A stretch of 64,000 nt of DNA from Firmicutes bacterium ADurb.Bin193 (GCA_002070105.1 MWCQ01000012.1:6754-70753), one strand, 5' to 3'. Shown: positions 8,160-39,307, counted from the stretch's first letter. Numbers and translations are program-made. Notes: generated by a model not told the origin, from the sequence alone.

Positions 8160-8160
8160 G

Positions 8161-21834: not shown

Positions 21835-22055
21835 AAATTCCAAGCAAGGTGACACCATACAAAGAAAGCACTATCGCAAAATTCCCTGTTGTGCTTTCCC
21901 TGTTGCAAGAAGGTGACCTTTCTCCAACGGACTTATACAGTAAGGTGAAGGATAGTAAAATTAAGCATATAGAAGAATTCGTTGAGGTTCTGGACTGCCT
22001 TTATGCAATGAGAAAAATAGAAATTCGAGAGGAGGTTCTCTATTATGTTGGTTGA
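21831..22055 (+). CDS. ABC-3C-type middle component (small wHTH-like protein)
   Basis: 74 aa, overlapping both neighbours (4 nt and 11 nt). Size and position are as in ABC-3C triads. Confidence 0.5.
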   Translation: MKIPSKVTPYKESTIAKFPVVLSLLQEGDLSPTDLYSKVKDSKIKHIEEFVEVLDCLYAMRKIEIREEVLYYVG

Positions 22056-23724
22056 AGTGCAATGTGATAAATTTATTAGTGACGGACAGATTCGGGAGCC
22101 TATTCGGTTTCATACTGGTCTCAATACTGTACTCGGTGATAATAATGGGTCAAACTCCATCGGTAAGTCTACCTTCCTAATGATACTGGATTTTATTTTT
22201 GGTGGTTCGGATTATGTAAAAAAGTGTGTAGATGTTCAGGAAAATATAAAAGAGCACACGATTAATTTCACCTTTGAGTTTGGTGGCTATCAATACCACT
22301 TCTCAAGGAATACCATCGACTACAATAAGGTTGTTAGATGTGATGAGAAGTACAATCCCTTAATTGAAGAAAAACCTTTGAGCCTTCAGGAATATGGAGA
22401 TTTTCTATGCAAAAATTATGGGCTGTCTGCAGAGGGAATCACATGGCGCGGGGCAGTAGCCAGATTCATCCGTGTCTATAAGAGAGATACGCTAGACGAG
22501 GAGCGGCCTCTCCGGTCATCAAAGGATGAGAAAGCCAGTGATGTAATCAAACGGTATATGCAACTTTTTAATAGATATCATGCTGTAGAAGCACAGATTA
22601 ATCAGGCAACTGCCGCTGAGGATGAGAAGGAGGCCTTTCGCAAATCTTCGTTGCAATATAATCATGTTCGTGCTGCAAAGACAACTAAGGAAAAAGAAGC
22701 AAATGAAACACGAATTGCTGTGCTAGAGCAGCGAGAGAAGGAAATGGCTGAAAGTAGCAATCAGGGTCTCCTTGATCTTGATAGCCTGACGGCGCGTCGT
22801 CTTTCTGAACTGATGGAGCAACTTATCAACTATCGAAGGCAGAGAGCTCGTATTCAAACACAACTCAACTCTATCCGTCGCGATATGACGGAGCAGAAAA
22901 AAGGGTTTAAAAGAACGTTCACTGATTTAGAACGATTCTTTCCAAACGAAGAATTCCGTACTCTTGAAGAGATTGAGCACTTTCACCAGAAACTAGCGAA
23001 GATTCTAGCTGAGGAGTTTAGGGAGGCAGAAAAGGATCTATCCACTACCTATGTGCTGTTGAATAATGAGATCGTAAGGCTAAAGAATGAGATCACTGAA
23101 ATTAAGAATGTCCCTAATGTGTCTCAGGCTATATTGAAGGAATTTGCACAGATAACGACCGAACTTCATAATCTCAGAGAAGCAAATAAAAATTTTGATG
23201 AACTGGAGAGCCTAAAGAAAGTAGCTGCAGATTATGCAGAGACTCGAGATGCTGTAATCCATGACCAGTTGCTTGCTATTGAAACCACCGTTAATCAGGC
23301 GATGCGCGAAATTAGTCTTAAGATACTAAAGGATGCCACACACATGCCTCCAATATTGCGACTGGAGAAATTAAACAAATATACATTTAATACTCCGAAC
23401 GATGGAGGAACTGGAGCACAGTATCGTGGACTGATTACATTTGACCTTGCGAATATGACAGCAGGTCCCATCCCGTTTGTTATACACGATTCTGTTTTAT
23501 TGAAAAATATAGAACGAAAAGTATTTGCAGAGATAATAAAAGTCTATGAGGCGCAGAAAAGTCATGGAAAACAGGTCTTTATGGCATACGATACTCTAGA
23601 TTCATATGACGAGAAAACGCGACTGCTAATTGAGTCAAATGCAGTGTTGAGACTGTCACCGAGAGGTAATGAGCTTTTCGGATGGGCTTGGAATAAGGAG
23701 AACAAAGATGAAGCAGGCAAATAA
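22045..23724 (+). CDS. DUF2326-type ABC/SMC-like ATPase with central coiled coil
   Basis: N-terminal GLNTVLGDNNGSNSIGKSTFLMILDFIFGG (Walker A), about 240 aa of heptad-rich sequence, and C-terminal PFVIHDSVLLKNI (Walker B/D-loop-like). Confidence 0.75.
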   Translation: MLVEVQCDKFISDGQIREPIRFHTGLNTVLGDNNGSNSIGKSTFLMILDFIFGGSDYVKKCVDVQENIKEHTINFTFEFGGYQYHFSRNTIDYNKVVRCDEKYNPLIEEKPLSLQEYGDFLCKNYGLSAEGITWRGAVARFIRVYKRDTLDEERPLRSSKDEKASDVIKRYMQLFNRYHAVEAQINQATAAEDEKEAFRKSSLQYNHVRAAKTTKEKEANETRIAVLEQREKEMAESSNQGLLDLDSLTARRLSELMEQLINYRRQRARIQTQLNSIRRDMTEQKKGFKRTFTDLERFFPNEEFRTLEEIEHFHQKLAKILAEEFREAEKDLSTTYVLLNNEIVRLKNEITEIKNVPNVSQAILKEFAQITTELHNLREANKNFDELESLKKVAADYAETRDAVIHDQLLAIETTVNQAMREISLKILKDATHMPPILRLEKLNKYTFNTPNDGGTGAQYRGLITFDLANMTAGPIPFVIHDSVLLKNIERKVFAEIIKVYEAQKSHGKQVFMAYDTLDSYDEKTRLLIESNAVLRLSPRGNELFGWAWNKENKDEAGK

Positions 23725-23974
23725 AAATAAAAAAGAGCTAAGAACACAGTTTAGTTACAATCGTTTATGGAAGCTGCTGATTGACAGAAACATTAAAAAG
23801 CAGGAGCTTCAAAAAATGAGCGATGTTAGCGCTGCTTCCATTGCGAAAATGGGAAGGTGCGAAAATGTTACAACAGACGTTCTTCTTAGAATCTGCGAAG
23901 CTCTTGATTGCAGAGTAGAAGAAATAATGGAGCGCGTTCCGAACAAAGAAACTAATACCGAGAAAGTTGAGTGA
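23708..23974 (+). CDS. XRE-family HTH transcriptional regulator
   Basis: KKQELQKMSDVSAASIAKMGRCENVTTDVLLRICEALDCRVEEIME. The start overlaps the ATPase stop by 17 nt. Confidence 0.75.
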   Translation: MKQANKNKKELRTQFSYNRLWKLLIDRNIKKQELQKMSDVSAASIAKMGRCENVTTDVLLRICEALDCRVEEIMERVPNKETNTEKVE

Positions 23975-24090: not shown

Positions 24091-27000
24091 ATGCTAAACA
24101 GAGAAATTCCGTTTAGACCTAAACTAGAGGGGGACTTTAGAATTAGGTTTTACAATGCAGTTTCTGTTATAAATGAAGAAACCTCGCCATTGGAGATAGA
24201 AAAAATCTCCAATAACGAGATCATGTGGGTAGAGAATGTTTGTACATATAATCTGGGGCAAAGAAAAAAATACAGGGCTGTTTGGATGTTATTTCGTGAT
24301 TTAACCAGAGCATCATGGAAAGCTTGCTATCGAGAGGGAGTTCTATATATGAGCCTGCCAAGCTTAAATGGTGCTGATATGCATGACGCTTCATCACCGG
24401 AAATAAAGAGACTTTTACGCAGTTGGATGAGCGAGAGCAGACACGAGCGATTGGTATCTTATACAGAATTCATCCAACGTATGGAGCGTAAAAATATCAA
24501 CAAGCATAGTATTGATGAATTAATAGCTGATGGAGAAGAACTAGCTTCTCGTTTGGAGAAGGCTCGTGATGGAGATATCAAGCTTACAGAAGCAGTGAAA
24601 CCTTATCTGCAGTTGGTTGTTGAGAACGAAAGAGATGAATTTACCGGAATAAAGACTTCAGAAATATGGAGATATTTTCGACTAACCTGGTCTACACCGG
24701 CTGAAACGACACCCGGACGTACTATGCAATATTTGATCCGAGATGCCGCCCATCCTATGCACGCTGTTATGGGCATAGCGTCACTCGAAAACTGTGCTGT
24801 ACAAATTACATGCAGGGATGATTTTATCGGTTGGAATCAGAAGGCTTTCATAGATAGGATCACATTACTTGGATCTGATGAGGCTAAAAAGGAGTTTCAG
24901 CAACTTCTACGATATCTTGAAAGTGGAATTAGTGGAATCGATTATTCTTCCTTATGTACCGAGGCAACGGTTAAGAATCCAAGCGAGGAGGATATTCAGC
25001 AGTTATTTGATTATGCAAACAGCGCTGAGCAGAGAAGACAAGAATTGTTAAAGGAAGCGTTGGAGGTTGGAATCGAGGAAGAAGAGAAAAGTGAATTAGG
25101 AAGTATATCAAAGGACACGGAGGAAGCTCTTTATAGAAGAAAACGAGCCGAACAACTTGCGCGCTTGCTTATGGCAAAGAAAGCGTTGGTGGAGGTATTT
25201 AATTCCGATGGATTTGATGAAATTTGGGTTGGTTTCTGTAAAAGTGAATACGGAAATTCAGTAATAAGAACTGCGCTTGTGGCACAGAAAACTCAGCATA
25301 TAGGCTCTAGCCTTATGGAGTTAAATGTTTGTGGTGCAATACCGCCATACAATGAAATACTAGGCGGGAAACTTGTTGCACTGTTGGCAACATCTCCTCA
25401 GGTAATACATGATTATAAGGAGCGATATTCGAATAAAGCTAGCATGATAGCTAGTAGAATTAAAGGTGAGGATGTGTTTAGGCCTGCCGACTTGGTTTAT
25501 GTAGGAACCACCTCCCTTTACTATGTTGGATCAAGTCAGTATAACCGATTGAGAATACCAGGGAAACTTTTCGATTCGGATTTCGATGTTGTATGGAAAA
25601 AACTTGGTATGACGATAGGTTTCGGTACGATGCATATAAGCAAAGCTACAACTCTTAGTTTAACTGAAGCAACTAGTGATGGTTACAACCGGATAAATCA
25701 TGTTTTTGGAGAAGGCGCAAGCCCGAAGATGCGCTTGCTCACAATGTCTATTAGAGAATTATTAGAATCTACTAATGAGGATTCCAAGGACTTTTCCAAG
25801 CATGCCATGTCACGTATTGTTTATGGTGCTTGCCTGGCCAGCAATACTTTAGATTATTTGATGGGAAAAGCAGAAGCACCAAAATATTACACAGACGTTC
25901 AAAAATATCAGGATGGAACAAAAAAGATTATTGATTATTGGACATCCAGATGGCTTGGAAGCAGACTTAACTATGACCCTATTTATCAGCGAATTCGTGA
26001 TTTTGATAAAGAAGGCTTTCTTGTAGGGAATCAAGTAAAAAAAGACAAAGAATGGGTTTTTAAGAAACTTAAGGAGGTATCACACATGCCGGTTAACGAT
26101 GATAAAAAAGTAGGCTTGCAATTCATTCGTGATTTTTATCGCGGTACAAGTGCGTACGCCGATCACGTGGATGAGGAACTTCTTTCCTACATACATCTGA
26201 AGACCAAACTGGATGATGCGGTTATAGCCGCAGCAAAAGCCGGCAAAGACATCGTGCTTACAGGAAATCCGGGCGATGGTAAGACGCATATCATCAGACT
26301 GCTGAAAAACCAGTTGGAGAATCTGTCTACTCCTGCAATTGTTGAATTGGATGCAAGTACTCTGTCAAACGAAGAAATATTCCAAAGATGGAATCGCGCA
26401 CAGGAGGAAAAAGCACCGTTTGTTATTGCGATAAACGCTGCTGTTTTGTACGCAGTGTATAATGCTTATCCAAATTTCACTCCGATTAAGGAAGCATATT
26501 CTCAGATGGTGCATTCAGTAGTTTTTCACGATGAAGTTCAGAAGACAGATTCTATTGTTGTGTTTGATCTCAGTAAACGAGAGGTTCTTACAAGTGAAAT
26601 TCTGGAACAAGCAATTTTTAAAATGACAGCCGAGGATCATTATACAGAATGTAAAAAGTGCCCCCTGTACGATGCATGTGTGGTACAAAAGAATAGAGTG
26701 CGGCTCAGGAATCCTCTATTTCAAGAGCGGTTGAGTATAATACTCCAACGAGTTTCTTTACAGGGATACCATGCAACATTACGTGAACTTCAGAGTTTCA
26801 TAGCTTATTTGATATTCGGAAATCGGAGTTGCAAGCAATTAAACCATACAGCCGGGAATAATCAATATGACATTGTGAATTTGATCTACTTTGGTAAAGG
26901 AACCCTTTTTACTGCTATAAATAATGCAATAGACCCTATCAATATCTCACATCCAGTATGGGATGAAAAGATATTATTGAATGACATCGATCCATCCTCC

Positions 27001-27681
27001 TGGGTTGATGGATACGAAGTTCCAGCAGAGGCTATAGCATATGATAATGATGATTTGTTCCGGCTGAGAAAAAGGCAGTTTTTCTTCTTTAATCTATATG
27101 GAGATGAACTTTTAAGGATTCTTGACGATGATGCATCGCGTTTTCAAGATTTCTTGAGGCAGGACAGCGGAAAGATAATTAAAGATCTTATTTCAAAGCT
27201 CAATGGTTTTTTTGGAGCAATCAACGCGTCCAATACAAAGTTGCAGATTTGGTCGGGACATCGTTACAATAATGAACCACGAAAAGTGCTTATTTCTGCA
27301 GGTTGTATAAAGAAAAGTGAATTCAGCATCGGTAGGCCCTCACTTTTAAGCAGTATGCAGACTGGAATTGATATGACCTCCAATTACATAAGACTTGAAA
27401 AAAAAGAGGCACCAAATATCTTTTTAAAGGTTGATTTTAAAATGTATCTCCTTTTGAATGAAGCGGAAAGAGGTGTGCCAGTACTTTTTATGGAATCCAA
27501 TTTAGTAAAGAAAGTATGGCGTTTTATTGAGCAGCTTCAATCATATAAGGATATTGACGATGAAGACACAGTTAAACTTGGACTGATGGATGTTCAGAAC
27601 AAACGCATCATTATGGTGGATGTTGATAGAGAGGATAATAAGTATTCTGCTATTGACAGTGAAAGAACAAGGGAGGTGTAG
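24091..27681 (+). CDS. DruA-like DUF4338 domain fused to a C-terminal P-loop NTPase (1196 aa)
   Basis: Residues about 190-520: RLTWSTPAETTPGRTMQYLIRD...IASLENCAVQITCRDDFIGWN...CGAIPPYNEILGGKLVALLATSP...LVYVGTTSLYYVGSSQYNRL...WKKLGMTIGFG. This parallels the DUF4338 conserved blocks as I remember them. Walker A is GNPGDGKT at 26263-26286 (K731). Confidence 0.65.
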   Translation: MLNREIPFRPKLEGDFRIRFYNAVSVINEETSPLEIEKISNNEIMWVENVCTYNLGQRKKYRAVWMLFRDLTRASWKACYREGVLYMSLPSLNGADMHDASSPEIKRLLRSWMSESRHERLVSYTEFIQRMERKNINKHSIDELIADGEELASRLEKARDGDIKLTEAVKPYLQLVVENERDEFTGIKTSEIWRYFRLTWSTPAETTPGRTMQYLIRDAAHPMHAVMGIASLENCAVQITCRDDFIGWNQKAFIDRITLLGSDEAKKEFQQLLRYLESGISGIDYSSLCTEATVKNPSEEDIQQLFDYANSAEQRRQELLKEALEVGIEEEEKSELGSISKDTEEALYRRKRAEQLARLLMAKKALVEVFNSDGFDEIWVGFCKSEYGNSVIRTALVAQKTQHIGSSLMELNVCGAIPPYNEILGGKLVALLATSPQVIHDYKERYSNKASMIASRIKGEDVFRPADLVYVGTTSLYYVGSSQYNRLRIPGKLFDSDFDVVWKKLGMTIGFGTMHISKATTLSLTEATSDGYNRINHVFGEGASPKMRLLTMSIRELLESTNEDSKDFSKHAMSRIVYGACLASNTLDYLMGKAEAPKYYTDVQKYQDGTKKIIDYWTSRWLGSRLNYDPIYQRIRDFDKEGFLVGNQVKKDKEWVFKKLKEVSHMPVNDDKKVGLQFIRDFYRGTSAYADHVDEELLSYIHLKTKLDDAVIAAAKAGKDIVLTGNPGDGKTHIIRLLKNQLENLSTPAIVELDASTLSNEEIFQRWNRAQEEKAPFVIAINAAVLYAVYNAYPNFTPIKEAYSQMVHSVVFHDEVQKTDSIVVFDLSKREVLTSEILEQAIFKMTAEDHYTECKKCPLYDACVVQKNRVRLRNPLFQERLSIILQRVSLQGYHATLRELQSFIAYLIFGNRSCKQLNHTAGNNQYDIVNLIYFGKGTLFTAINNAIDPINISHPVWDEKILLNDIDPSSWVDGYEVPAEAIAYDNDDLFRLRKRQFFFFNLYGDELLRILDDDASRFQDFLRQDSGKIIKDLISKLNGFFGAINASNTKLQIWSGHRYNNEPRKVLISAGCIKKSEFSIGRPSLLSSMQTGIDMTSNYIRLEKKEAPNIFLKVDFKMYLLLNEAERGVPVLFMESNLVKKVWRFIEQLQSYKDIDDEDTVKLGLMDVQNKRIIMVDVDREDNKYSAIDSERTREV

Positions 27682-27685
27682 AGTG

Positions 27686-29170
27686 ATGGAACAGATTTAT
27701 CTTCGAGATGCACGTAAGGCTGTAGATAAGAATTATGTTGGGTTTACTCCTAATGGAAGTTCAATTAAGCCTGTTCATATAGCGGGTGGTTCACTTCGCT
27801 GTATCTTCGGATATTATAACCGAACCAAAAACATCAAGCGGATGGCATTGGTTTCTGATTCCAAAGGTAATATCCCTGCAGGCAACGAAGCAGATATAAT
27901 TTATTCTCAGTTAGCGAAAGATGAAAAGATTGAGGACAGCATTTCTGAGAATTCCATTGAGTCCATGAGGAATGTCATGCAGAGGTTGCTGTCTGTTGAT
28001 AAAGGTGTTTATGTTGTAAAAGGGCTTAAAGATGGAATGATTTCCTATTCTGCTGGGTCAAAGTATTTCCTCACAAGTAGAGCTATGTATGAGGATGCTG
28101 GTGAGTTTATGGGAAGCCTTATAAGAGCATACTGTCCAGATCTTGCAAACTATATCAGAGATCTCTTGGAATCAGGGAATGATCCGATTACATTGCTATT
28201 CGGCCCTGTTCTAGAGGCAGATATGGAAGTGTTCTCTGATCAAAATCAGCATGAAGATTTGCCTGCATTTCAGGAGTTGAATAAAAGTACTAAATGGTTT
28301 ATAAATAGCATAAGAGATGGCGGAGCGTGCTTATTGGACAATTTCCGGCATCATCCTAACCCATTGACGCAGTTAAGACAGTTCAACTTTTTCTGTATTA
28401 TTAATTTGATTCGATACATGACCCTGCTGGAGGCTTTATATTGTGGCGAAAACATTAGACCAATATTGTTGGATTTTAGTGGGAAAATCCCTAGCTTTAG
28501 TAGTGTGGCAAGAATGTCCGAGATGTCTTACACGCAAATGTATAAATCAATTAACCGCTTCTATGCATGGGGATATGCAAAATGGCTTGATGAGCAGGGA
28601 TACAGCAAAGAAGAACTGTTAAATTCTGAAACGCCTGCATATGAAAAAGGAAAAACTGTCTCAAAGGCTAGCAAGGACGAATTGGATGCGCTGTGGACTC
28701 TTGCAAAGGAACGAGCCAGTGAAGTAGATGGAGAAAGCATGTACCTTGAGTTTGGGGAGACTATGTACGATATGCTTGCGCTAGAAGCATCGTCCCACCC
28801 GGTAACATATATTAGGGCTCTTGGGACATCTGCTGGTGTTTTGTATCCCCCAGATCAACTACACCCTAATAAGCGATTTGTTATTTCTCAAGATATTCTC
28901 GAAATGCTTTTAAGAAGTTGTGTAAGCTCTGGTGAAATAATAAGCGGCATGGAAATTAGACAACGGCTGTGGGATAGATTTGGGATTATTATTGGAGGAA
29001 GCCAGTTTGAAATGCAGATGCTCCAATCAAGTGGAATGATTATGCAAATTGATGAGGATGCACTAGAAGAAAATTTCTCCTTATTTGCCGCAACTCTTGA
29101 GTCAATGGACTTTGCAGAGGTTATGGCAGACGGTATTCTACAGATTAGAATGGGAGGTGCTGAAAAATGA
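27686..29170 (+). CDS. 494-aa protein of unknown function, translationally coupled to both neighbours
   Basis: ATG 27686 lies 4 nt after the upstream stop and after GGGAGG. Its stop overlaps the next start (ATGA). No motif recognised. Confidence 0.6.
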   Translation: MEQIYLRDARKAVDKNYVGFTPNGSSIKPVHIAGGSLRCIFGYYNRTKNIKRMALVSDSKGNIPAGNEADIIYSQLAKDEKIEDSISENSIESMRNVMQRLLSVDKGVYVVKGLKDGMISYSAGSKYFLTSRAMYEDAGEFMGSLIRAYCPDLANYIRDLLESGNDPITLLFGPVLEADMEVFSDQNQHEDLPAFQELNKSTKWFINSIRDGGACLLDNFRHHPNPLTQLRQFNFFCIINLIRYMTLLEALYCGENIRPILLDFSGKIPSFSSVARMSEMSYTQMYKSINRFYAWGYAKWLDEQGYSKEELLNSETPAYEKGKTVSKASKDELDALWTLAKERASEVDGESMYLEFGETMYDMLALEASSHPVTYIRALGTSAGVLYPPDQLHPNKRFVISQDILEMLLRSCVSSGEIISGMEIRQRLWDRFGIIIGGSQFEMQMLQSSGMIMQIDEDALEENFSLFAATLESMDFAEVMADGILQIRMGGAEK

Positions 29171-32100
29171 TGGACAAGCAAGCATTAGTTGCCGAACTTC
29201 TACGGAAGCATCTTGGTTGTGTAAAAACAGGTATCATTATCAAAGGAATTGAGGGTATTAATCCCGAAAGCATTGTCAGTCAGTTGGTTGATACCAATGC
29301 TCAATTGTATACTGCCATAATTGGTTATGGCAAGGTTACCAAGAGCCATGAAGCCAATTATGAAATTACCGATTTGATTGAGAAAGCAGTCTTGTGGAGA
29401 AGTATGCCTGAATGTGCTAGACGCATTCTCGTATTTATAAAGAATGATACGGACAAGCTTCATTCCTTGGCTGAATTTGACGTTATTTCCACGAGGGATG
29501 TATCGAGATTCCTTTTAGAACAGCAATTGAAGAATGATAATAATACACCAACACATAACTTTTGGACTGCACTTAAAGATACCTCTGATTACTATACGTT
29601 CGATGCGCTATACGAATTTGTTTCGGCAGTGTCGAGAAGTGACAATTCCGCAGAAGCAATCCCAGAAAACATGTGGCGGATAAATCTGTTATCTGATTCC
29701 AAAATTCTTGGCACAAAAAGTGATCCCAAGGAGAGACTCGCTAAGAACAGAGACCTAATTTTTTCAATAGGGCAACTACGTGAGGATTCTAGAAAGAAAC
29801 TGAGTCGGTCTTTGGCGCGGTCAAAAGTGAGCGATAAAGAAAGACTCCAAAAGGCATATCATAGCCTGCAAAGTCTTTATAAATACGGCAAGCGTGAAAC
29901 ACTAAGGGATCTTGATATGGAGACAGTCCAAGAATTGTTTTCTGCATCTCAAGAATCAGATAATAAAAGAAAGAAAGCATTACCTCCTAAACCCGAGGAC
30001 CCTTCAAATATTGAGGAAACACTACCTGAGAGCACACCAATCAAGCCAAAGGAGTTAGACGTTTTAATCTCCGATGCAGTGGTATTTGGCGGTGATGAGG
30101 AATTAGAAAATATACAGGATTTACTGAAGGCATTAATAAAGCATTACGATCCTGAAACTGAAGAAAATGATGACGACATTCCTCCGATAGGCGGAATTTT
30201 TGGCGATAGAAATATTGTGTTAGAAAACCATCAAACGGATCTCAGAAAGCTAGTTGGTAAGTTTTGCAATTTGTCCGCTTGGGGCGGTCTCATGGAGACT
30301 GATGAAAGTGTTCTCAAGGATGCTATTTCTGCCGATATCACTAATGCTAAATTTTTCAATCCGGAAAGTGTAAATTCGATAATATCTTTTTCAGGCGGAA
30401 TCGACGGAAGTCAGCCTTTGTTTGATTTCATCGTTCAATTCGATGCTCAATTTGATGCAAAGGGATTGGATAACGCGGAGAGATTCACTGCGATAATATC
30501 TAATTTAAAGGAACAGAGAGCAAAGCTTTATGATTCGATTGATATGATTATGTATCATCCAGTTCTATTATTTGGAGCCTCTGAAGAAAAGAGACAGGTT
30601 CTTGTGGATTATATTCAAGCGTGGGAACGTCTTTATCATGCGTTCTGCGTTAATGAGCCCATCATGAGACAAATCAGCGCTGGAGGAACAAGTTTTATTG
30701 CTAGAGCGATTTTGCTGCTAGATGTTTTATATGTTAAGACTCCGAAGGAATGGAAAGGACTGCTCCTTCCGTTGCATCCAATTTACCTATGGCGCTTTTA
30801 TGAGGTCTTCCGTACCTTGCCCAATAAGAAGTCTACGCTTAGCGACGAAGATAAAGATGCGTTATCTGCAGTTTTATCGCAGCTTCCGCAGGTACTGAGT
30901 TTTATCATAGCAAACAGCATTGTGACTGAATCATCGGAAGATCGAATTCTCCCTTGCTCTGGAAGCATAGAGATGTTGCCTACCTTTGAAAATAAAACTA
31001 ATCGCTATTTAGGCAATGATGGCACAGAATCCATAGAAGAAATACTTACTAGGTGGGTAGGTTTTGCTCCTTATACACGAAACGAAATCAGAATTTGCTC
31101 TGTAGATGCGCCAGATTTAATTGGAATTATTCGTCAAGTTAAGTCCTTTATGGATAAAAATTCCTGCAAGCGCGTAGTATATGATGTTTATCTTACAAGA
31201 AACCAAAATGGGAATACTGAACTGTCAAAACTAGATTATGCTGGAAAGGATTACGAAATAGGCGAATATATAAAAGAAGACCGAATTTTCATAGGTATTA
31301 AAAATGTTCGTTCAGTGAATGATGTAAAATCCGCCTTGGACTTTAGGCCTGTTCATGTGGCGTTCTATTTTGATCAGTCCTCATACGCAATCGAATTTGG
31401 CCCAAACAGCCATAACCTTTATATCAATCCGCTAGTTATAACATATGATTATGACTTTGACGAGATTCAGCATAAAGGCAGCATCTTCCCTTCATCAGAA
31501 ATGGACTCCGGTCTTATTGGTGACTACCATAAGCTAATGAGATCAGCGGATATTATAACCAACAACATGAATCCGAGGACAATCTATAACGGAAATGCGG
31601 ATATGACATCTGTGGTCTCGACGATTGAGGACGGCCAGACGCAGTGGCTTGTGGTTGCAGATAGAGACACAAACAATTATCAGCCAGAAAAGGCTATTCC
31701 GATTGGTGAGATGCAATATGACAAGAGGATGGTAAATGCTTGGGCGTCAGATGAATCAAGAATCATCTCACAGTATTTAAATCTTCTTCGCGGCTATAAT
31801 TTATATCCCAAGGCTGAAACCCTTATTGATATTCTTCGACAGTTTGGCCATATTGCTTCTAATGGGCTGATTAGTATTCCAAAATTTGGGGCAGACGCCC
31901 AGGCGATCGATAACAAGAGAAAAGGTTTAATTGGGACTTTATTTGCAGCTTCTTGGTATATGAAAAAGCATCCAGAGGCTCTTGTTGCATCCTTGGATGA
32001 TGATAAGGCAAGACTTTGGCTGCAAAACAGAAAGTATGGAAATGAACGGGCCGATCTCGTAGGCTTGTACTATGATGATCAGAGCAATACACTCCATATT

Positions 32101-33915
32101 CAACCTATTGAGGTGAAAACGAGAGATGAATCTCCGGATGCCACCATAACTAAGGATGAAGTTGGATCAAAGGTATTTAATATTACTGGCCATGCTGCAG
32201 GTCAGATTGCTTCAGTGATAGAGATCTTGAGAGAAATCTTTACTACCGATGAAAATGCAGCGGATATGTTTACGTCGGCACGAAGAGAGGTCTTAAAATA
32301 CCAAATTGTATCAGAATGCTTCAGAAATGTACACAATGCAGATTGGCAAAAGCGATGGTACGATATTCTGAAAAGAGCGTTCGCGAATGGACCTAGAAAG
32401 AATATAACAATTAATGTATCAGGAATACTAATGCATATAAAGCTTAATGAGGCGTCCGGCGGCGAGCATATTGTTTGCTATAATCCCGAATTCGATGATT
32501 GTCGAATTGATTATTGGAAACTTACAGCCAGAGAAATTCAGCGAGATGTGCTGGGAGATGGTTCCCTTATTAAAGAAATGTGGACACCAGATTTTGATAC
32601 AGCGGAAGACAATGATGTGGTAGTTAATGATTCAGTTGATGCAATAATTGATAAAGATGACGCTGTTGATGATATATATGAAGAAGGAGATATTACAAGA
32701 GATATTCATCCTCCGGAAAGTATTCCATCAAGCAATTTGGCGGTAGTTACCGAACCGCGTGAGAAGAACGGTGCGCCAGTTATTTCGGGCACTCCTGTTC
32801 TGGAGACTGAAAATGGCGTTAGCAAAGAAGAGATTGAACAGTTGGTTAAGGATTTTAAGAGATCCTGTGGTGATTATCATGTTTCCTTGCGTGAATGCGA
32901 TGCAGAAAATACAGTTGTTGGGCCAAGCGTTATACGTTTAAAATTCCGTTTGGGTCGAGGACAAGCATTGCAGGGGCTTTCCAGCCATCTAGAGGATATT
33001 GGAAGAGAGATGAAGCGTACCGGCGTGATTATCCAACAGGTGCCTAATTCTGATGAATTACTTCTAGATGTACCACGGCTTCAACGCGAAAAGGTTTTAT
33101 TTAGGGATGTCATATCTTCTTTGCCTAGGGTAACGTCTCCTGAGCAACTGTATTTCCCCCTTGGAAGAACACCTAATGGTGTAGATTTAATTGAGGATCT
33201 TGGCCAGATGCCACATATGCTGGTTGGTGGTAGCACTGGATCTGGAAAATCTGTATTCCTCTTTACAATGCTTGCTGCAATGTTGATGACTCATCCGCGA
33301 AAGGAAGATCTTCAGTTGATTTTATCCTCGTCAAAGCTGGAGGATTTCATACATTTTGAAGGATTACCCCATCTTTATTCGGGGAGTGTTATTTCTGATG
33401 CTATCGAAGCAACGAAAGTGATCAAGGAGGTTATTTTCGAAGAGTCTGAACGCAGAGGGAAACTACTTGCAGAGGCTAGAGTCGCAAACATTATCGAGTA
33501 TAACAAGATAGCAGAGGAGAAACTCGCTCCAATCGTAGTAGTGATTGATGAGTTTGCTGATTTGGCAGATCAATTAGAAAATAAAAAAGAACAAAACGCT
33601 TTCTATAAACCTGTTCAACGCATAGCACAGGCTGGACGTAGTAGAGGGATACATCTTGTTATCTGCACACAACGACCTGAAGCAAAACTTGTACCTTCAA
33701 CTACAAAAGCACAATTAAACGGCCGTGTTGCTTTGCGTGTTAATGATGGCATTTCATCTCGCATGATTATCGAGACACCGGATGCTCAGTACCTTCAGAA
33801 GCACGGAGATATGATTTACAAGAATGGTGATGTGGTTGAACGTGCCCAAGGTTATTTGATTGAAATCGAGGAACTAGATAAAATCGTAAGCTCAGTAATT
33901 AATGGTACATTCTAA
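29167..33915 (+). CDS. 1582-aa protein: unknown N-terminal region, PD-(D/E)xK-like nuclease motif, acidic linker, C-terminal FtsK/SpoIIIE alpha-beta ATPase motor
   Basis: ERADLVGLYYDDQSNTLHIQPIEVKTR (D963, E982, K984). VGPSVIRLKFRLGRGQALQGL...VIIQQVPN (FtsK alpha-like). MLVGGSTGSGKSVFL (Walker A, K1361). IVVVIDEFADL (Walker B). GIHLVICTQRP. NGRVALRVNDGISSRMI. Confidence 0.8.
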   Translation: MMDKQALVAELLRKHLGCVKTGIIIKGIEGINPESIVSQLVDTNAQLYTAIIGYGKVTKSHEANYEITDLIEKAVLWRSMPECARRILVFIKNDTDKLHSLAEFDVISTRDVSRFLLEQQLKNDNNTPTHNFWTALKDTSDYYTFDALYEFVSAVSRSDNSAEAIPENMWRINLLSDSKILGTKSDPKERLAKNRDLIFSIGQLREDSRKKLSRSLARSKVSDKERLQKAYHSLQSLYKYGKRETLRDLDMETVQELFSASQESDNKRKKALPPKPEDPSNIEETLPESTPIKPKELDVLISDAVVFGGDEELENIQDLLKALIKHYDPETEENDDDIPPIGGIFGDRNIVLENHQTDLRKLVGKFCNLSAWGGLMETDESVLKDAISADITNAKFFNPESVNSIISFSGGIDGSQPLFDFIVQFDAQFDAKGLDNAERFTAIISNLKEQRAKLYDSIDMIMYHPVLLFGASEEKRQVLVDYIQAWERLYHAFCVNEPIMRQISAGGTSFIARAILLLDVLYVKTPKEWKGLLLPLHPIYLWRFYEVFRTLPNKKSTLSDEDKDALSAVLSQLPQVLSFIIANSIVTESSEDRILPCSGSIEMLPTFENKTNRYLGNDGTESIEEILTRWVGFAPYTRNEIRICSVDAPDLIGIIRQVKSFMDKNSCKRVVYDVYLTRNQNGNTELSKLDYAGKDYEIGEYIKEDRIFIGIKNVRSVNDVKSALDFRPVHVAFYFDQSSYAIEFGPNSHNLYINPLVITYDYDFDEIQHKGSIFPSSEMDSGLIGDYHKLMRSADIITNNMNPRTIYNGNADMTSVVSTIEDGQTQWLVVADRDTNNYQPEKAIPIGEMQYDKRMVNAWASDESRIISQYLNLLRGYNLYPKAETLIDILRQFGHIASNGLISIPKFGADAQAIDNKRKGLIGTLFAASWYMKKHPEALVASLDDDKARLWLQNRKYGNERADLVGLYYDDQSNTLHIQPIEVKTRDESPDATITKDEVGSKVFNITGHAAGQIASVIEILREIFTTDENAADMFTSARREVLKYQIVSECFRNVHNADWQKRWYDILKRAFANGPRKNITINVSGILMHIKLNEASGGEHIVCYNPEFDDCRIDYWKLTAREIQRDVLGDGSLIKEMWTPDFDTAEDNDVVVNDSVDAIIDKDDAVDDIYEEGDITRDIHPPESIPSSNLAVVTEPREKNGAPVISGTPVLETENGVSKEEIEQLVKDFKRSCGDYHVSLRECDAENTVVGPSVIRLKFRLGRGQALQGLSSHLEDIGREMKRTGVIIQQVPNSDELLLDVPRLQREKVLFRDVISSLPRVTSPEQLYFPLGRTPNGVDLIEDLGQMPHMLVGGSTGSGKSVFLFTMLAAMLMTHPRKEDLQLILSSSKLEDFIHFEGLPHLYSGSVISDAIEATKVIKEVIFEESERRGKLLAEARVANIIEYNKIAEEKLAPIVVVIDEFADLADQLENKKEQNAFYKPVQRIAQAGRSRGIHLVICTQRPEAKLVPSTTKAQLNGRVALRVNDGISSRMIIETPDAQYLQKHGDMIYKNGDVVERAQGYLIEIEELDKIVSSVINGTF

Positions 33916-33932
33916 GTGAAGGAGAAAACTAT

Positions 33933-34628
33933 ATGCAGGCGACTTCTATGTATGGAGACTTAATTGTTGGCACTTTTATAAAAGAAGAAAAGAATCGATT
34001 TATTTGCCGTGTTAGGGTCTCTGGAATAGAAACCGTCTGCTATATTCCTTCATCCTGTCGACTCAGCAACTTTATTGACCTTGAAGGAAGACAGGTCTTA
34101 CTAAAACCAAACGCATCCAGAAAGACACGCACGGAATACTCTGTTTTTGCAGTTAAATACAAACGAGGATTTATTCCTGTTAATCTTTCTTTAGCTAATC
34201 GAGTTGTTGAAGAACAAATTAAAAACCGCAGATTTTCATTCTTAGGAAACCGAAAAAATGTAATTCGAGAGGCTATGATAGATGGATATAAAGCGGATTT
34301 GTATATCAGTGACACACAGACAATAATTGAAATTAAAAGCATTCTTTCATTTGAAAAAGAAACTGTATTTCCTACTGTATATTCAGAACGTGCACTAAAT
34401 CAGTTAATAAAAATTAAAGAACTATTACTACAGGGATATACGGTACATTATATGTTGATTTCATTAAACCCTGTTGTTAAGCAAATCACATTAAATCAAA
34501 ATATGAGTGATTTTTATGAGCATTTTCTTGAGTGTATAGCTTTGGGGATGCAGTGCTGCGGGTATAGCATTTATTTACAAAGTGGCATACCAACCACGCA
34601 TTCAAAAACTAACGTATATTGGTGCTGA
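33933..34628 (+). CDS. sfsA: SfsA-like nuclease (N-terminal OB-like region plus PD-(D/E)xK core)
   Basis: GTFIKEEKNRFICRVRVSGIETVCYIPSSCRL..., GYKADLYISDTQTIIEIKS (D...E-I-K), and size (231 aa) match the SfsA family. AAGGAG lies 7 nt upstream of the ATG. Confidence 0.7.
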   Translation: MQATSMYGDLIVGTFIKEEKNRFICRVRVSGIETVCYIPSSCRLSNFIDLEGRQVLLKPNASRKTRTEYSVFAVKYKRGFIPVNLSLANRVVEEQIKNRRFSFLGNRKNVIREAMIDGYKADLYISDTQTIIEIKSILSFEKETVFPTVYSERALNQLIKIKELLLQGYTVHYMLISLNPVVKQITLNQNMSDFYEHFLECIALGMQCCGYSIYLQSGIPTTHSKTNVYWC

Positions 34629-34734
34629 TCCAGTTGATGTTTATTCATCTAAACTTAATACGCAGAACAAATATACGAAAGTCCCCGAACTTCTTGATTT
34701 GAGGCCATTCTTACAACTGAAAGGAGATTATAAT

Positions 34735-35793
34735 ATGTTAGATAGTACGATTACTTTATTTTCCTCTGATAGCAGACCTCAGTATGTAAAAGACGTTTTT
34801 AATGTATTAGCTCTACCCCATGGGAGTATGTACAGATTTAGGTATAAAGAGAAATACATACATAGCGATGTAATTGAACACTTAGGCAGTAGTAAAATTA
34901 AGGGTACTATTGCGTTAATAGCGTTCAGGACAAAACTGGGTATAGATAAAAATGAGCAGATTTTAATCCCAGTGCGTTGGGCCTCTATAACAAATATTAG
35001 GAAAAGTTCTGATTACTACTTAATTGATTTTACAGTTTTAGGTTATGCCGTCTTCAATAAAGAATTTGAAAATTGTCGAAATTATGAAGATATAAATTCG
35101 CTGGCAAAAAAGTATTTTTCCTCACAGGATAAGATTGACGCTTTTGTTATAAAAAACACGCCAAATATTGTCATCCCATTTGCAAATACAAAGCCAAATA
35201 AAATAAATGAAGATGATGAGAAAGATCGCTGGTTGAAAGTAACGGAACGTCTCAGTATCTATCCAAAGTTTGAAAAATGCTATTACTTTAAGGCATCAAT
35301 AATAAAAAATGGGCTTGCCAAGCTTTTTAACCCTAATTCTGTAATGGAAGGCGGAAGAACAAACATCAACATTGAATACAATAACTTTTGTGATATTTCA
35401 GACTCTGAAATAAATGTTGAGTACGATGAATGCTTATTAATACCCTCCAGAGATAAAAAAACCAAGATTGAATGCAGATATGATTCTACTATTTATGCAT
35501 TTCAAGCGAAAGGGATTTTATCAGATACACCTACGCAAATAACATTAAACTGTTATAGCTATAAAGACACTGAAAATAATCAAGACATTGAAACGATGAT
35601 AAAGATTCCTTTAATAATAAAAAGGAATCGTTGTTATTTGTTTGCTCGAGTCCTTTTATCGCTCGTTGGCGCAATAGGTATCGGTTTACCAGGAGTTTTA
35701 TCTGAATCTACCCCCTCCAAATGTAAAGTTGTTTTATTTGTTATAGGTTCAATATTCATTGCAATTAGCTGGTTGATACCGTATAAGGAGTAG
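34735..35793 (+). CDS. Hypothetical protein with two C-terminal transmembrane helices
   Basis: ATG 34735 lies 8 nt after AGGAG (the ORF track start 34582 would overlap sfsA). C-terminal CYLFARVLLSLVGAIGIGLPGVL and VVLFVIGSIFIAISWLIPY. Confidence 0.5.
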   Translation: MLDSTITLFSSDSRPQYVKDVFNVLALPHGSMYRFRYKEKYIHSDVIEHLGSSKIKGTIALIAFRTKLGIDKNEQILIPVRWASITNIRKSSDYYLIDFTVLGYAVFNKEFENCRNYEDINSLAKKYFSSQDKIDAFVIKNTPNIVIPFANTKPNKINEDDEKDRWLKVTERLSIYPKFEKCYYFKASIIKNGLAKLFNPNSVMEGGRTNINIEYNNFCDISDSEINVEYDECLLIPSRDKKTKIECRYDSTIYAFQAKGILSDTPTQITLNCYSYKDTENNQDIETMIKIPLIIKRNRCYLFARVLLSLVGAIGIGLPGVLSESTPSKCKVVLFVIGSIFIAISWLIPYKE

Positions 35794-35795
35794 CT

Positions 35796-36164
35796 ATGAT
35801 ATATAAATTTCTGAAAATAAAAAAAGCTATCCAGAAATCTTGGGGAGTTGATACAGCATATAAGGATGATATCCCCAATTGGTCAACCGATAATCCAGCA
35901 GCTGGGCAGTGTGCTGTTACTGCATTGGTAATTCATGACTTTTTTGGTGGCCAAATATTCAGCGGAGTGTCACAAGATGGTGTGGTTCATTATTGGAACT
36001 ACGTACATGGCATAAAAATTGACTTAACTCGAAGTCAATTTAAAGAGACTAAAAAATTCTCTGATATTATTGAATGGGCATCGAATGATTTACTGAATAC
36101 CGGTAATGTCAAGGAACGCTATGAGATTCTTAGAAATCGAGTAGAAATGTATATGCAAAAATAA
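35796..36164 (+). CDS. Small conserved protein, YunG-like (uncertain)
   Basis: 122 aa, starting 2 nt after the previous stop. W..DTAY...WSTDNPAAGQCAVTALVIHDFFGG resembles my memory of YunG-family proteins. Confidence 0.4.
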   Translation: MIYKFLKIKKAIQKSWGVDTAYKDDIPNWSTDNPAAGQCAVTALVIHDFFGGQIFSGVSQDGVVHYWNYVHGIKIDLTRSQFKETKKFSDIIEWASNDLLNTGNVKERYEILRNRVEMYMQK

Positions 36165-36517: not shown

Positions 36518-36631
36518 GTCAGGTTAGATGTCAGTACTCGGTGAGTGTACAGGTTAGATGTCAGCCTTCGCGAGTGGTCAGGTCAGATGTTTTTTCGGAA
36601 GTTTTTGAGGTTGTGTGAACAGGTTGGATGT
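36518..36631 (+). repeat. Four phased direct repeats immediately upstream of the PRTase-like gene RBS (candidate operator or iteron array)
   Basis: GGTCAGGTTAGATGTCAG (36518), GTACAGGTTAGATGTCAG (36548), GGTCAGGTCAGATGT (36578), GAACAGGTTGGATGT (36618). Spacing is 30, 30 and 40 nt. Confidence 0.75.
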
Positions 36632-36650
36632 AAAAAGGGAGGAAAGCATA

Positions 36651-37541
36651 TTGGATACAAAAGTTGTAAAAGATATTTGTAGGGAGAAATGGGCAGCAGG
36701 GTTTGATGAGGATACAAAAACAAAGAAAGCATTAGCTCAATTTGATGTTTGGCTTGCTCAAATACCTGATAAATACAAAGAACTGAGTCTTGTTTTAATT
36801 CAAAATCTTGAATATTTTCCCCGAGACTTAATAAACAAGTTGCTGATGGAATTACATAAGAAGCTGATTAAACTGCCAGCCATTAGTGATGATAATACAA
36901 TATATGCATATATCAAGTCAAAAGACGGAAAAACGAATAGTTCGGATGAGTATTGGACAATGTACAAGTTATTGAATGATGTTAATCGTGAGTTTTGCTA
37001 TGAGAATATAAATGCCATAAATAATTGGCAATGGGCATATGTGAAAAATATTGTGTTTATTGACGATTTCAGTGGAACTGGAAAAAGTATAATCAAGGAG
37101 TTGAAAAAGAATGAAAGTCGTTATATAGGAAAGAATATATATTTTATTACAATTTGTGTGATGGAAGATGCAATTCAAAAAATCAAGAATTATTCTAAAT
37201 TAAAAAAAATGAATATAGTACCAGTCTTTTGTTTTATGCATAAGAAAACTTTTGCACGAGAATTATTTGAAAACAATGAAGACGCCAAAGACTCATTTAT
37301 CGCCTTGACAACATATTTAAAAATACCAGAGTGGGAATATCCATTAGGATTTGAAAAATCGGAGGCGCTTGTTGCTTTTCATAATAACACTCCAAACAAC
37401 ACGCTTTCGATTATCAGATGTGACACCAAAGAATATAAGTCTTTATTTCCACGCAGGCATGAGAATAAACCTTTTTGGGATAAAATGAAATCACAAAGCA
37501 AAGGCAGAAAAGTTGCAAACTATAAAAATAAATTTGTGTAA
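36651..37541 (+). CDS. Phosphoribosyltransferase (PRTase)-like retron accessory protein
   Basis: NIVFIDDFSGTGKSII resembles the PRPP-binding loop of type I PRTases. TTG start at 36651 lies 8 nt after GGGAGG (ORF-track start 36615 is inside the repeat array). Confidence 0.55.
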   Translation: MDTKVVKDICREKWAAGFDEDTKTKKALAQFDVWLAQIPDKYKELSLVLIQNLEYFPRDLINKLLMELHKKLIKLPAISDDNTIYAYIKSKDGKTNSSDEYWTMYKLLNDVNREFCYENINAINNWQWAYVKNIVFIDDFSGTGKSIIKELKKNESRYIGKNIYFITICVMEDAIQKIKNYSKLKKMNIVPVFCFMHKKTFARELFENNEDAKDSFIALTTYLKIPEWEYPLGFEKSEALVAFHNNTPNNTLSIIRCDTKEYKSLFPRRHENKPFWDKMKSQSKGRKVANYKNKFV

Positions 37542-37554
37542 AGGGGATGAATCT

Positions 37555-37878
37555 GTGGTTAATTATCAGAAACAACTAGCACTGCTCTATTTTAAAACGT
37601 CTGGTAATGAATATGACTTATTAGAACTTATGCAACTCTTGGGGTTGCGGCAAAATCAACTGGATTTGATTTTATCAGAACTAAAAAAAGATGGTTTTAT
37701 TTGTATCAGTAATTATGAAATCACAATTACTGAAAAAGGAATCCTACATCTTGCTGCAAATAATGTCTCCAGCAATGCAGATGATGGAATACAATATCCG
37801 TTAAAGAATATCGTGAGTGAAAACTTGATGCCGTTGAACGAACCATATGTACCCAAGAAGTTTTTAACTAAAATATAA
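37555..37878 (+). CDS. Small winged-helix DNA-binding protein (retron accessory)
   Basis: DLLELMQLLGLRQNQLDLILSELKKDGFICISNYEITITEKG. GTG 37555 follows AAAGGGGA; the alternative ATG 37513 overlaps the upstream gene. Confidence 0.5.
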   Translation: MVNYQKQLALLYFKTSGNEYDLLELMQLLGLRQNQLDLILSELKKDGFICISNYEITITEKGILHLAANNVSSNADDGIQYPLKNIVSENLMPLNEPYVPKKFLTKI

Positions 37879-38290: not shown

Positions 38291-39307
38291 ATGGAAAATT
38301 ATATTGATAGGCTTAAAATATTATTAAGAGAGTCTGGATACGGCAAGCATTATTCAGAAAAATGTATCGAATATGCAAGACGATTAATCGAAAATAATCT
38401 ACCAGTGATATTCGATATAGACCATTTTTCGTTGGTCAGTGGTGCGCCCAAAGAACTGATTTTAAAAATACTGTTTGCAGATTCAAATTATTATTCGCTG
38501 GCTCAAATACCTAAAAAATCCGGTGGATTCAGAGACTTGCATATTCCGTCGGTAGAATTAAAGTATTTACAATGTTGGATTTTAGATAATATTCTTATTA
38601 AAGTGCAAATTTCACCATATGCGACAGGTTTTTGCAATAATAAATCAATCATTGATAATGCAAAAATGCACATTGGTAGCGAATGCATTTTGAATATGGA
38701 TATTAAAGATTTCTTCCCCTCTATTAAATTCACAATGGTATTTAGAATTTTTGCATATTACGGATACACAAAAGAGCTTTCCTTTGTATTTGCAAAGTTA
38801 TGCACATATGAAGATTCTTTGCCTCAGGGCTCTCCTGCGAGTCCGTGTATTTCCAATATAGTAAGCTTGAGAATTGATAAAAGGCTTTCGCTATTAGCCG
38901 AGAAATACAACGCTTGTTATTCGAGATATGCAGATGATATAACTTTTTCCGGAAATGGCGGAATCAAAAAGTTGATAGAAATCACCGCCAAAATATTAAC
39001 AGAAGAAGGGTTTTCTTTAAACACAAAAAAAACTAGAATGCAATTTTCGCACCAGCGCCAAGAAGTTACTGGATTGATCATTAATGGTGGCACTATTAGA
39101 GTGAATAAGAAATATAAGCGTGATTTATATCAAATATGCTATTATTGTAAAAAATTTGGTGTTGATAGCCATCTACAAAAAATCAAATGCAACAAAAGTT
39201 TTTATAAAGAGCATTTATATGGAAAAGCATATTTTGTGAACATGGTAGAACCTGAGGAAGGTAAAAAACTTTTTAAAATACTAAATGAAATTCAATGGGA
39301 TTATTGA
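38291..39307 (+). CDS. Retron-type reverse transcriptase
   Basis: GGFRDLHIP, NAKMH (retron NAxxH), NMDIKDFFPSI, LPQGSPASP, YSRYADDITFS (YADD), QEVTGLIIN (VTG). 338 aa. Confidence 0.9.
   Translation: MENYIDRLKILLRESGYGKHYSEKCIEYARRLIENNLPVIFDIDHFSLVSGAPKELILKILFADSNYYSLAQIPKKSGGFRDLHIPSVELKYLQCWILDNILIKVQISPYATGFCNNKSIIDNAKMHIGSECILNMDIKDFFPSIKFTMVFRIFAYYGYTKELSFVFAKLCTYEDSLPQGSPASPCISNIVSLRIDKRLSLLAEKYNACYSRYADDITFSGNGGIKKLIEITAKILTEEGFSLNTKKTRMQFSHQRQEVTGLIINGGTIRVNKKYKRDLYQICYYCKKFGVDSHLQKIKCNKSFYKEHLYGKAYFVNMVEPEEGKKLFKILNEIQWDY

Follow-up and report, generated by a model that had tools for sequence, protein, structure and literature searches.

A probable self-contained, mobile restriction cassette of the SspFGH/DndFGH superfamily with a complete DruA fused to its F subunit

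Introduction

The three-gene restriction module SspFGH damages DNA that lacks the phosphorothioate (PT) mark and suppresses phage DNA replication (Wang et al. 2021, PMC8092258); all three genes are needed, and the module is toxic to PT-free cells (PMC8092258). DndFGH, of the same superfamily, is often decoupled from dndABCDE and has been proposed to counter invaders as a system in its own right (Rakesh, Aravind & Krishnan 2024, PMC10853773). Herein, we analyze a gene cluster at positions 24,091 to 36,164 of a DNA stretch from the metagenome-assembled genome (MAG) of Firmicutes bacterium ADurb.Bin193 (GCA_002070105.1, MWCQ01000012.1:6754-70753; the whole stretch, 64,000 nucleotides long, is called the window). 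The cluster is led by a predicted F-G-H trio in which F is fused to DruA, and it probably represents a self-contained, mobile restriction cassette of this superfamily.

The architecture of the Dnd restriction proteins has been described in detail (PMC10853773). Specifically, the P-loop kinase of DndF is recognized by an Asn in the Walker-B position and, at strand 2, by an acidic residue, and the protein also has a helical lid of ~200 aa and a C-terminal alpha+beta domain, while DndG folds as a triad of winged-helix domains. DndH contains an active PD-(D/E)xK restriction endonuclease (REase), then a HerA/FtsK ATPase with a sensor-1 Gln, and its N-terminal array comprises an inactive SF2 C-domain, a helix-turn-helix (HTH), two beta-sandwiches, a target recognition domain (TRD) and a Dam methylase that is inactive and has a further TRD nested in it; in some variants, the HerA/FtsK domain is taken from the cellular FtsK clade. 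The same study notes that occasional N-terminal fusions of DndF include "a GNAT domain (annotated as DUF4338 in Pfam)". DUF4338 is the domain of DruA, and two preprints associate Druantia type I, which contains DruA, with host DNA modification, though no methylase domain is known there.

Results

Layout of the cassette

A sequence-only reading of the window had described six co-directional open reading frames (ORFs), here g1 to g6, as a candidate defence operon. All six are present on the plus strand at the positions it gave, and the junctions, read directly from the DNA, are as it stated: g1 and g2 lie 4 nt apart, g2 and g3 overlap by ATGA, 17 nt that contain AAGGAG separate g3 from g4, and the last two spacers measure 106 and 2 nt. 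The motifs that it listed also occur in the translations (GNPGDGKT with K731 in g1; D963...E982-V-K984, K1361, which lies in GSGKS, VVVIDEFADL and ICTQRP in g3), Pfam bears out the DruA, FtsK_SpoIIIE (3.5e-30), SfsA_N plus SfsA, and YunG contents, and the two C-terminal transmembrane (TM) segments of g5 correspond to hydrophobic residues 300-324 and 326-351. The arrangement is not a matter of chance, because hundreds of full-length homologues of the cassette genes occur in the same order in other genomes. The parts, including an HTH gene upstream of g1, are as follows.

23669-23974, plus strand: XRE/Cro-type HTH gene, HTH_26 (Pfam HTH_26, 7e-18; VanU-like NCBIfam match)
24091-27681, plus strand: g1, whole ORF, 1196 aa
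24091-26070, plus strand: N-terminal part of g1, DruA (DUF4338) module, residues ~1-660 (PADLOC, Pfam)
26071-27681, plus strand: C-terminal part of g1, predicted SspF/DndF-type P-loop core, residues ~661-1196 (PADLOC, alignment)
27686-29170, plus strand: g2, SspG/DndG-type predicted DNA-binding subunit, 494 aa (AlphaFold2 and Foldseek, transitive PADLOC match)
29167-33915, plus strand: g3, predicted SspH/DndH-type giant, 1582 aa (PADLOC, PDB profile)
~31984-32316, plus strand: PD-(D/E)xK nuclease of g3, D963/E982/K984 (motif)
~32827-33876, plus strand: FtsK alpha/beta motor of g3, residues 1221-1570 (PADLOC, PDB)
33933-34628, plus strand: g4, SfsA-like OB-fold plus PD-(D/E)xK nuclease, 231 aa (Pfam, NCBIfam)
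34735-35793, plus strand: g5, 352 aa, two C-terminal TM segments (hydrophobic segments)
35796-36164, plus strand: g6, YunG family, 122 aa (Pfam PF24585, 1.4e-34)

Two starts call for comment. The true start of the HTH gene probably lies some codons 3' of 23669, and for g5 the ORF list has a longer form from a GTG at 34582; a ribosome-binding site and an ATG were found at 34735, with the 106-nt g4-g5 spacer ending in AAAGGAG before that ATG.

A complete DruA joined to an F-type P-loop core

Residues 54-637 of g1 match the PADLOC model for DruA type I (PDLC00001) at 8.6e-116, covering profile positions 56-650 of 675, and Pfam DruA (PF14236) is matched at 9.6e-33. This part of g1 is 35% identical to separate DruA proteins encoded on haloarchaeal plasmids, with which it has in common the motifs IWRYFRxTWxTP..PGR, RDxxIGW, VCGAIPPYNxILGGKL and FGEGxSP; the invariant DruA motifs include VCGAIPPYNEILGGK, RDDxIGW and FGEGASP. 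Further along the protein, residues 699-934 match PADLOC SspF (PDLC02795) at 3.7e-20, four more SspF models also match, and the PADLOC DndF match is weak. From end to end, the F core (residues ~661-1196) is colinear with F proteins of 508-521 aa that stand alone in a haloarchaeal plasmid (blastp, 1.8e-43), in Lutispora and in a Hymenobacter plasmid. Stand-alone relatives also match SspF. The Walker A motif (residues 723-732, LTGNPGDGKT), D754 (in "DAS") and the Walker-B Asn N782 (IAIN) do not vary among the F proteins of Firmicutes, Bacteroidota and Haloarchaea, nor among 44 close homologues. At the level of sequence, then, g1 is a complete DruA fused to an SspF/DndF-type P-loop protein.

Structure-based searches added little for this protein. 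No usable match was obtained from PDB sequences with g1 alone, PDB profile searches with the F and DruA alignments returned generic P-loop matches at most, and no acetyltransferase family was matched in Pfam at E <= 0.01. An AlphaFold2 model of the full 1196 aa, built from 44 homologues at 72-86% identity, renders residues 835-1040 helical and residues 1050-1192 strand-rich, an arrangement in keeping with the lid and alpha+beta domain of DndF, with pLDDT (predicted local distance difference test) values there mostly <50. Foldseek found nothing for this model at E <= 1e-3, giving only weak generic P-loop and DENN matches.

The G and H subunits

The sequence-only reading had called the 494-aa product of g2 devoid of recognisable motifs, which stands as far as direct family matches go; by fold and by distant relatives, the protein is of predicted SspG/DndG type. 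Its AlphaFold2 model (pLDDT 80.4; predicted template modelling score, pTM, 0.83) matches DndG (7exx) in a Foldseek search of the PDB at E 5.7e-3 and probability 1.00, with template modelling scores of 0.39/0.43 over 497 aligned columns. This was the sole notable match, the next having an E of 1.9, and because the template modelling score is modest, the domain arrangement of g2 may differ from that of DndG. An HMMER search with a g2 profile gathered 248 cluster representatives, and 29 of the 35 distant full-length homologues (E 1e-13 to 1e-26) match PADLOC SspG (PDLC02799, best 1.9e-16), as does the haloarchaeal G protein (2.9e-12); a PDB search with the G alignment profile found nothing. Across the genome, assembly and metagenome loci described below, a g2-type gene always lies between F and H. 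The transitive profile match and the fold match thus indirectly identify g2 as a putative SspG/DndG-type DNA-binding protein.

For g3, residues 910-1570 are colinear with PADLOC SspH (2.4e-65, profile positions 908-1554 of 1561). Cellular FtsK, with its alpha domain, is the nearest match of the final ~350 residues (PDB 2ius, 2.5e-40; 3e-83 with the profile), and the H profile retrieves only FtsK-type ATPases from the PDB. D963, E982, K984, K1361, D1461/E1462 and Q1502 are invariant in nine H proteins of 23-72% identity. These matches make g3 a predicted SspH-type protein with intact PD-(D/E)xK nuclease residues and an FtsK-type motor.

Obligate linkage of DruA, F, G and H

Gene linkage was followed in 17 genome or assembly loci, chosen by close similarity to g1, and in the best 80 of at least 331 relatives found by scanning metagenomes with the F alignment. 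The g1-g2-g3 order is contiguous in 13/13 evaluable loci of the first sample, while in the second, G is present in 65 of the 66 evaluable loci and H in 42 of the 43. DruA and F form a single fused ORF of ~1190-1257 aa in 70 of the 80 metagenome loci, including those with 34-40% F identity; the remaining ten consist of five without upstream DNA, two decayed fragments and three contig-edge or frameshift cases. In Lutispora saccharofermentans, DruA has a gene of its own immediately upstream of F-G-H, and it is separate and adjacent in all three annotated haloarchaeal plasmid loci as well, where RefSeq names it "DUF4338 domain-containing protein" or "Druantia anti-phage system protein DruA"; a Hymenobacter plasmid carries a DruA segment just upstream of F. 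This Rosetta-stone pattern, with DruA fused in some lineages and adjacent in others, argues for subunits that work together. From Firmicutes and Bacteroidota to Haloarchaea, and with F identity as low as 34%, the four components are thus obligately linked.

The recurrence of the whole six-gene cluster, as the sequence-only reading had framed it, is seen in Lutispora (locus L024) and in two further loci (L023 and L027), each of which contains all six genes. The linkage is unequal, however: DruA-F, G and H make up the core, SfsA is frequent, and the TM protein and YunG are rare.

Copies of the cassette with 71-89% identity were seen in Lachnospiraceae, Oscillospiraceae, Peptoniphilaceae, Muribaculaceae and others; hosts among the 17 loci also include Muricomes intestini DSM 29489 and Anaerovoracaceae, with a Muribaculaceae copy at 82% identity. 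Its neighbors elsewhere are integrases, relaxases, recombinases, transposases and TIR proteins, and some copies are on plasmids. It is a horizontally mobile cassette, widespread in gut and digester anaerobes. No exact-sequence matches of g1, g5 or g6 were found in the assembly index.

Decayed copies were also encountered. In L014 (10001-14407), g1 is joined at residue ~720 to residue ~828 of g3, g2 having been lost in an internal deletion; in L083, F is truncated and SfsA comes directly after it, and L100 and L102 retain short F fragments only.

Comparison with described systems

As the sequence-only reading had held for genes of the dndA-E type, no dnd or ssp modification genes were seen in the 64-kb window of the MAG. 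The ORFs at 19-44 kb gave no match to Dnd/Ssp modification, methyltransferase or DruB-E proteins, the other 33 window ORFs gave no Dnd/Ssp match among the PADLOC families listed down to 4e-17, and the Pfam-annotated flanks of the assembly loci contained no PT genes. DruB-E, of which it had reported DruE missing, were found neither among the 19-44 kb ORFs nor in the Pfam-annotated related loci. Further, the size pattern that it likened to DptF-DptG-DptH reflects real homology to the F-G-H restriction modules of PT systems, and this superfamily membership, together with the defence-island context, agrees with a defence-type operon. Its statement that no described system has this combination is incorrect, because the F-G-H superfamily is known and Rakesh et al. 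already report DUF4338 fused to the N-terminus of DndF (PMC10853773). It had also named an outcome that would make the locus a known Dnd restriction module, namely full-length DptF, DptG and DptH matches with dndABCDE elsewhere in the genome. This was borne out only by half: g1-g3 reached no Dpt-named NCBIfam family at E <= 1, the SspF and SspH matches were partial, and no Dnd/Ssp modification genes were found in the window.

Like SspFGH, whose proteins are of ~550, 500 and 1560 aa, the cassette has three co-directional genes in the order F-G-H, with a Walker A motif in F and a C-terminal FtsK/SpoIIIE motor in H. It differs in having no adjacent sspBCD or iscS, in the complete N-terminal DruA carried by F, in the extra SfsA, TM and YunG genes, and in the partial nature of the F and H matches; its hosts are anaerobic Firmicutes, Bacteroidota and Haloarchaea, whereas SspFGH is found in Proteobacteria. 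With DndFGH, it has in common the Walker-B Asn and acidic strand-2 residue of F, a G model that matches the DndG structure, an H that combines an REase with a HerA/FtsK motor of the cellular-FtsK type (clade 2 of Rakesh et al.) and the lack of modification genes alongside, but the PADLOC match to DndF is only weak and no Dpt-named NCBIfam family is reached at E <= 1.

The DUF4338-DndF fusion itself is already published, in one line, in 2024, and is uncharacterised. In that account it is an occasional add-on, and the obligate combination of DruA with F, G and H, the unfused forms, SfsA and the TM-YunG pair are not described; the supplementary text of Rakesh et al. was searched and has no DUF4338 entries. 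We found no earlier description of the four-part set as obligate, of its unfused forms in archaea and clostridia, of the regulator, of SfsA and TM-YunG as accessories or of the abundance of the cassette in gut and digester anaerobes, and our literature search found no paper on DruA biochemistry.

Druantia type I shares full-length DruA with the cassette, which lacks DruB, DruC, DruD and the DUF1998/YprA helicase DruE and has an FtsK-REase partner instead. We considered whether the locus is a Druantia type I variant and rejected this, given the lack of DruB-E among the ORFs at 19-44 kb. A weak likeness to MADS was also observed: g2 residues 382-482 match NCBIfam MAD7 (9e-4), the g3 motor (residues 1330-1553) matches PADLOC mad8 (2.6e-19), and g3 residues 35-211 match NCBIfam MAD8 (1.5e-4). 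Unlike MADS, the cassette has no methyltransferase or specificity genes, and all of these scores are far below the family cut-offs. The similarities hint at a distant relationship between MADS and F-G-H, with F-G-H-like cores pairing with different self-marking modules.

Accessory genes

A homologue of the HTH gene lies directly upstream of DruA-F in 15/17 of the genome and assembly loci, including loci without ABC-3C, and is present in 25 of the 33 close metagenome loci. It travels with the cassette and should be included in the unit, for which the six-gene scope first proposed was too narrow; it is probably the transcriptional regulator of the cassette.

The product of g4 matches NCBIfam sfsA at 7.5e-18. 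An SfsA gene stands directly 3' of H in all 30 close, 4/6 intermediate and 1/5 distant metagenome loci, and is absent from L004, L008, L025 and the archaeal plasmid cassettes. It may plausibly serve as a second nuclease of the cassette.

The g5 family is rare, with 24 clusters among 5.8 billion, and neither g5 nor g6 appears in the 17 genome/assembly and 80 metagenome loci gathered from g1/F. That the two are unrelated passengers was considered and rejected: a search outward from g5 found the pair behind the cassette in 4/4 contexts examined, where g5 homologues (31-71% identity) lie directly behind F-G-H(-SfsA) and are followed by YunG. Specifically, YunG comes after the g5 homologue in L022/L024, L023, L025 and L027, at 57-78% identity. 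The core proteins of Lutispora are 24-38% identical to those of the window, with 24-25% for F, G and H, and its SfsA is 49% identical, whereas g5 and YunG (L024 10001-11427 against window 34735-36164) are 71% and 78% identical. The G+C content of the window drops from ~0.40 to 0.34 at 34 kb. The high identity of g5 and YunG against the low identity of the core, taken with this drop, suggests a recent recombinational exchange of the TM-YunG module between divergent cassettes. The pair is a rare, exchangeable accessory module. The literature searched on YunG and SfsA was uninformative.

Genomic context

The cassette sits in an AT-rich island between two other defence systems, as had been recognised in the sequence-only reading. 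The G+C content is 0.31-0.42 at 20-44 kb, as against 0.47-0.51 at 1-20 kb and 0.41-0.47 beyond 44 kb. The flanking systems are as follows.

20584-21834, upstream of the cassette: ABC-3C CTD11 protein
22045-23724, upstream of the cassette: ABC-3C DUF2326 ABC ATPase
36615-37541, downstream: type III-A retron, phosphoribosyltransferase (PRTase)
37513-37878, downstream: type III-A retron, winged-helix (WH) protein
38291-39307, downstream: type III-A retron, reverse transcriptase (RT)

An ABC-3C set lies directly upstream of HTH-DruA-FGH in 8/17 and 7/33 loci, among them L007, L010, L017 (about 7095-9617), L009, L013, L076 and L101. The ABC-3C proteins of L007, L010 and L017 are 23-32% identical to those of the window, while their g1-g3 proteins are 75-78% identical; this divergence beside a conserved core indicates that different ABC-3C variants landed at, or were swapped into, the same position. 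The position could reflect either a hotspot effect or a functional pairing. Neither ABC-3C nor the retron was accepted as part of the system, ABC-3C occurring in about a quarter to half of the loci and the retron in none.

The 410-nt gap before the retron RT should hold the msr/msd RNA, and an Rfam scan of 20-41 kb gave no RNA family at the gathering threshold, this gap included. The RT is followed by a 191-aa ORF (39317-39892) without a family match. At 41271-43762, in the low-GC part of the island and beside the defence genes, a 620-aa fusion of a nucleotidyltransferase with an aminotransferase and a 210-aa CDP-alcohol phosphatidyltransferase look like a surface/lipid-modification pair. The region at 1-19 kb, on the minus strand, encodes a DUF2800 protein, an Enc34-type ssDNA-binding protein, a D5_N primase-helicase, a DUF7768 protein, an amidoligase and a SAM synthetase, as well as DNA methyltransferases of the C5 and N6/N4 types, which match PADLOC methylase models very strongly. 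These phage- or mobile-element-type genes and methyltransferases were placed at 1-19 kb by exclusion, the DNA at 48-64 kb being core chromosome. Possibly, the defence island is cargo adjoining a prophage-like element.

Discussion

Our results point to a self-contained, mobile anti-invader restriction cassette of the SspFGH/DndFGH superfamily in which F is fused to a complete DruA, a reading to which we assign a probability of about 0.7. Under this model, F, G and H would assemble as one complex, in which DNA is bound and read by G together with the N-terminal part of H. The FtsK motor of the latter would translocate along double-stranded DNA with ATP, and its nuclease would nick or cut foreign DNA, such that phage or plasmid replication is blocked, as for SspFGH/DndFGH. 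The P-loop of F, with its Walker-B Asn, may act as a nucleotide-binding sensor or switch, as Rakesh et al. suggest. DruA, tethered to F, would set the license to attack, either by marking or recognizing self DNA or by sensing infection, and would take the place held by sspBCD or dndA-E in canonical systems. The XRE-type HTH protein upstream would control expression, SfsA would help to destroy the target as a second nuclease, and the TM protein and YunG could possibly form a membrane effector.

Several observations weigh against this reading. The SspF match of g1 reaches no further than the N-terminal half of the profile (positions 34-285 of 560), that of g3 to SspH is limited to its C-terminal ~650 aa, and the N-terminal ~900 aa of g3 have no match in Pfam, PADLOC or PDB sequence and profile searches, whether g3 itself or its distant relatives are used. 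In NCBIfam, g1-g3 reach no family named DptF, DptG or DptH at E <= 1, and g2 has no direct match in PADLOC, Pfam or PDB sequences. The AlphaFold2 model of g1 is poor (pLDDT 55.6, pTM 0.37) and gives weak ground for or against a GNAT fold in DruA and for the lid and alpha+beta domain of F. Further, the roles given here to DruA, SfsA, g5 and YunG are ones that we infer, and we found no experimental work on the DruA-linked FGH branch in the literature. The missing NCBIfam Dpt matches, the half-covered SspF profile and the unmatched N-terminus of g3 lead us to view the trio, judged from its sequences, as a divergent, DruA-linked branch of the SspFGH/DndFGH superfamily rather than as a canonical Dnd restriction module.

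The proximity to PT systems raises the question of whether the cassette is simply an ordinary PT-dependent module, in which FGH spares PT-marked host DNA, sspBCD or dndABCDE are encoded elsewhere in the genome, and DruA has merely accreted. All three proteins do belong to the superfamily, SspFGH needs PT marking against self-damage (PMC8092258), and the DNA inspected here, 64 kb of a MAG, leaves room for distant genes, which also counts against a self-contained cassette. However, no strong Dnd/Ssp modification match emerged from the window or from the annotated flanks of the assembly loci, and FGH is commonly decoupled from dnd genes (PMC10853773). The cassette crosses phyla and rides plasmids as a compact unit, which is hardly possible with a remote partner and makes dependence on one unlikely. 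DruA is kept in essentially every evaluable locus, and as a separate archaeal gene, and its retention down to 34% F identity argues for an essential rather than an incidental role. PT dependence thus appears improbable. An explanation outside defence fares worse still, and we consider it very improbable: the cassette would be a DNA-handling or addiction module of mobile elements, with FtsK-type pumping for transfer or segregation and the nuclease for post-segregational killing. The motor is indeed closest to cellular FtsK and conjugative coupling proteins, and loci do lie within integrative elements and plasmids, but there is no transmembrane or coupling-protein architecture, the proteins are homologous to the experimentally proven defence proteins SspF, SspG and SspH, and the cassette is flanked by ABC-3C and a retron here and adjoined by TIR and other defence genes elsewhere.

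Alternatively, FGH could restrict alone by means of its many DNA-binding domains, with DruA as a GNAT-type back-up suicide effector that acts on host proteins and fires if restriction is blocked. This was proposed by Rakesh et al., who count DUF4338, like HEPN, NERD and kinase domains, among the variable domains added to the N-terminus of DndF (PMC10853773), and the invariance of VCGAIPPYNxILGGKL fits an enzyme. We nonetheless regard it as unlikely. Unlike interchangeable effectors, DruA occurs in every evaluable locus, whether as a fusion or as a neighboring gene, and so strict a retention fits a core role better; the fold and profile searches came back empty, as did the Pfam search for an acetyltransferase; and in Druantia type I, DruA accompanies a helicase system with reported host DNA modification.

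Returning to the self-contained cassette, DruA most likely licenses or restrains restriction. A new host would be harmed by an incoming cassette unless the latter were self-controlled, and DruA is the only invariant extra, which is what points to it as the license. The modification signal of Druantia type I would be compatible with this idea, without proving it. More speculatively, DruA might be a self/non-self determinant common to two unrelated defence machines, writing or reading a mark on host DNA, a proposal that we hold to be doubtful as it stands. If true, DruA would replace the PT-writing genes as the partner of FGH, much as it partners DruE in Druantia type I. This would explain how an FGH cassette, whose SspFGH relatives are toxic alone, crosses phyla without modification genes, why DruA is never lost from this branch and why there is an extra modification signal in Druantia type I cells. 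The TM-YunG pair would then be an additional output module.

Current defence annotation apparently does not recognize the cassette as a system. The models in PADLOC-DB match parts of it only (g1 and g3, with none for g2), and many genomes therefore likely carry a defence system that goes uncounted. With its covalent DruA-F link and its conservation from gut Firmicutes to haloarchaeal plasmids, the cassette lends itself to experiment, being compact, abundant and carried by at least one cultured strain (Muricomes intestini DSM 29489): DruA point mutants would be readable as toxicity, lost defence or a lost DNA mark. It joins two questions, namely what DruA does in Druantia type I and how standalone DndFGH/SspFGH-type modules spare the genome of their own host without PT marking.

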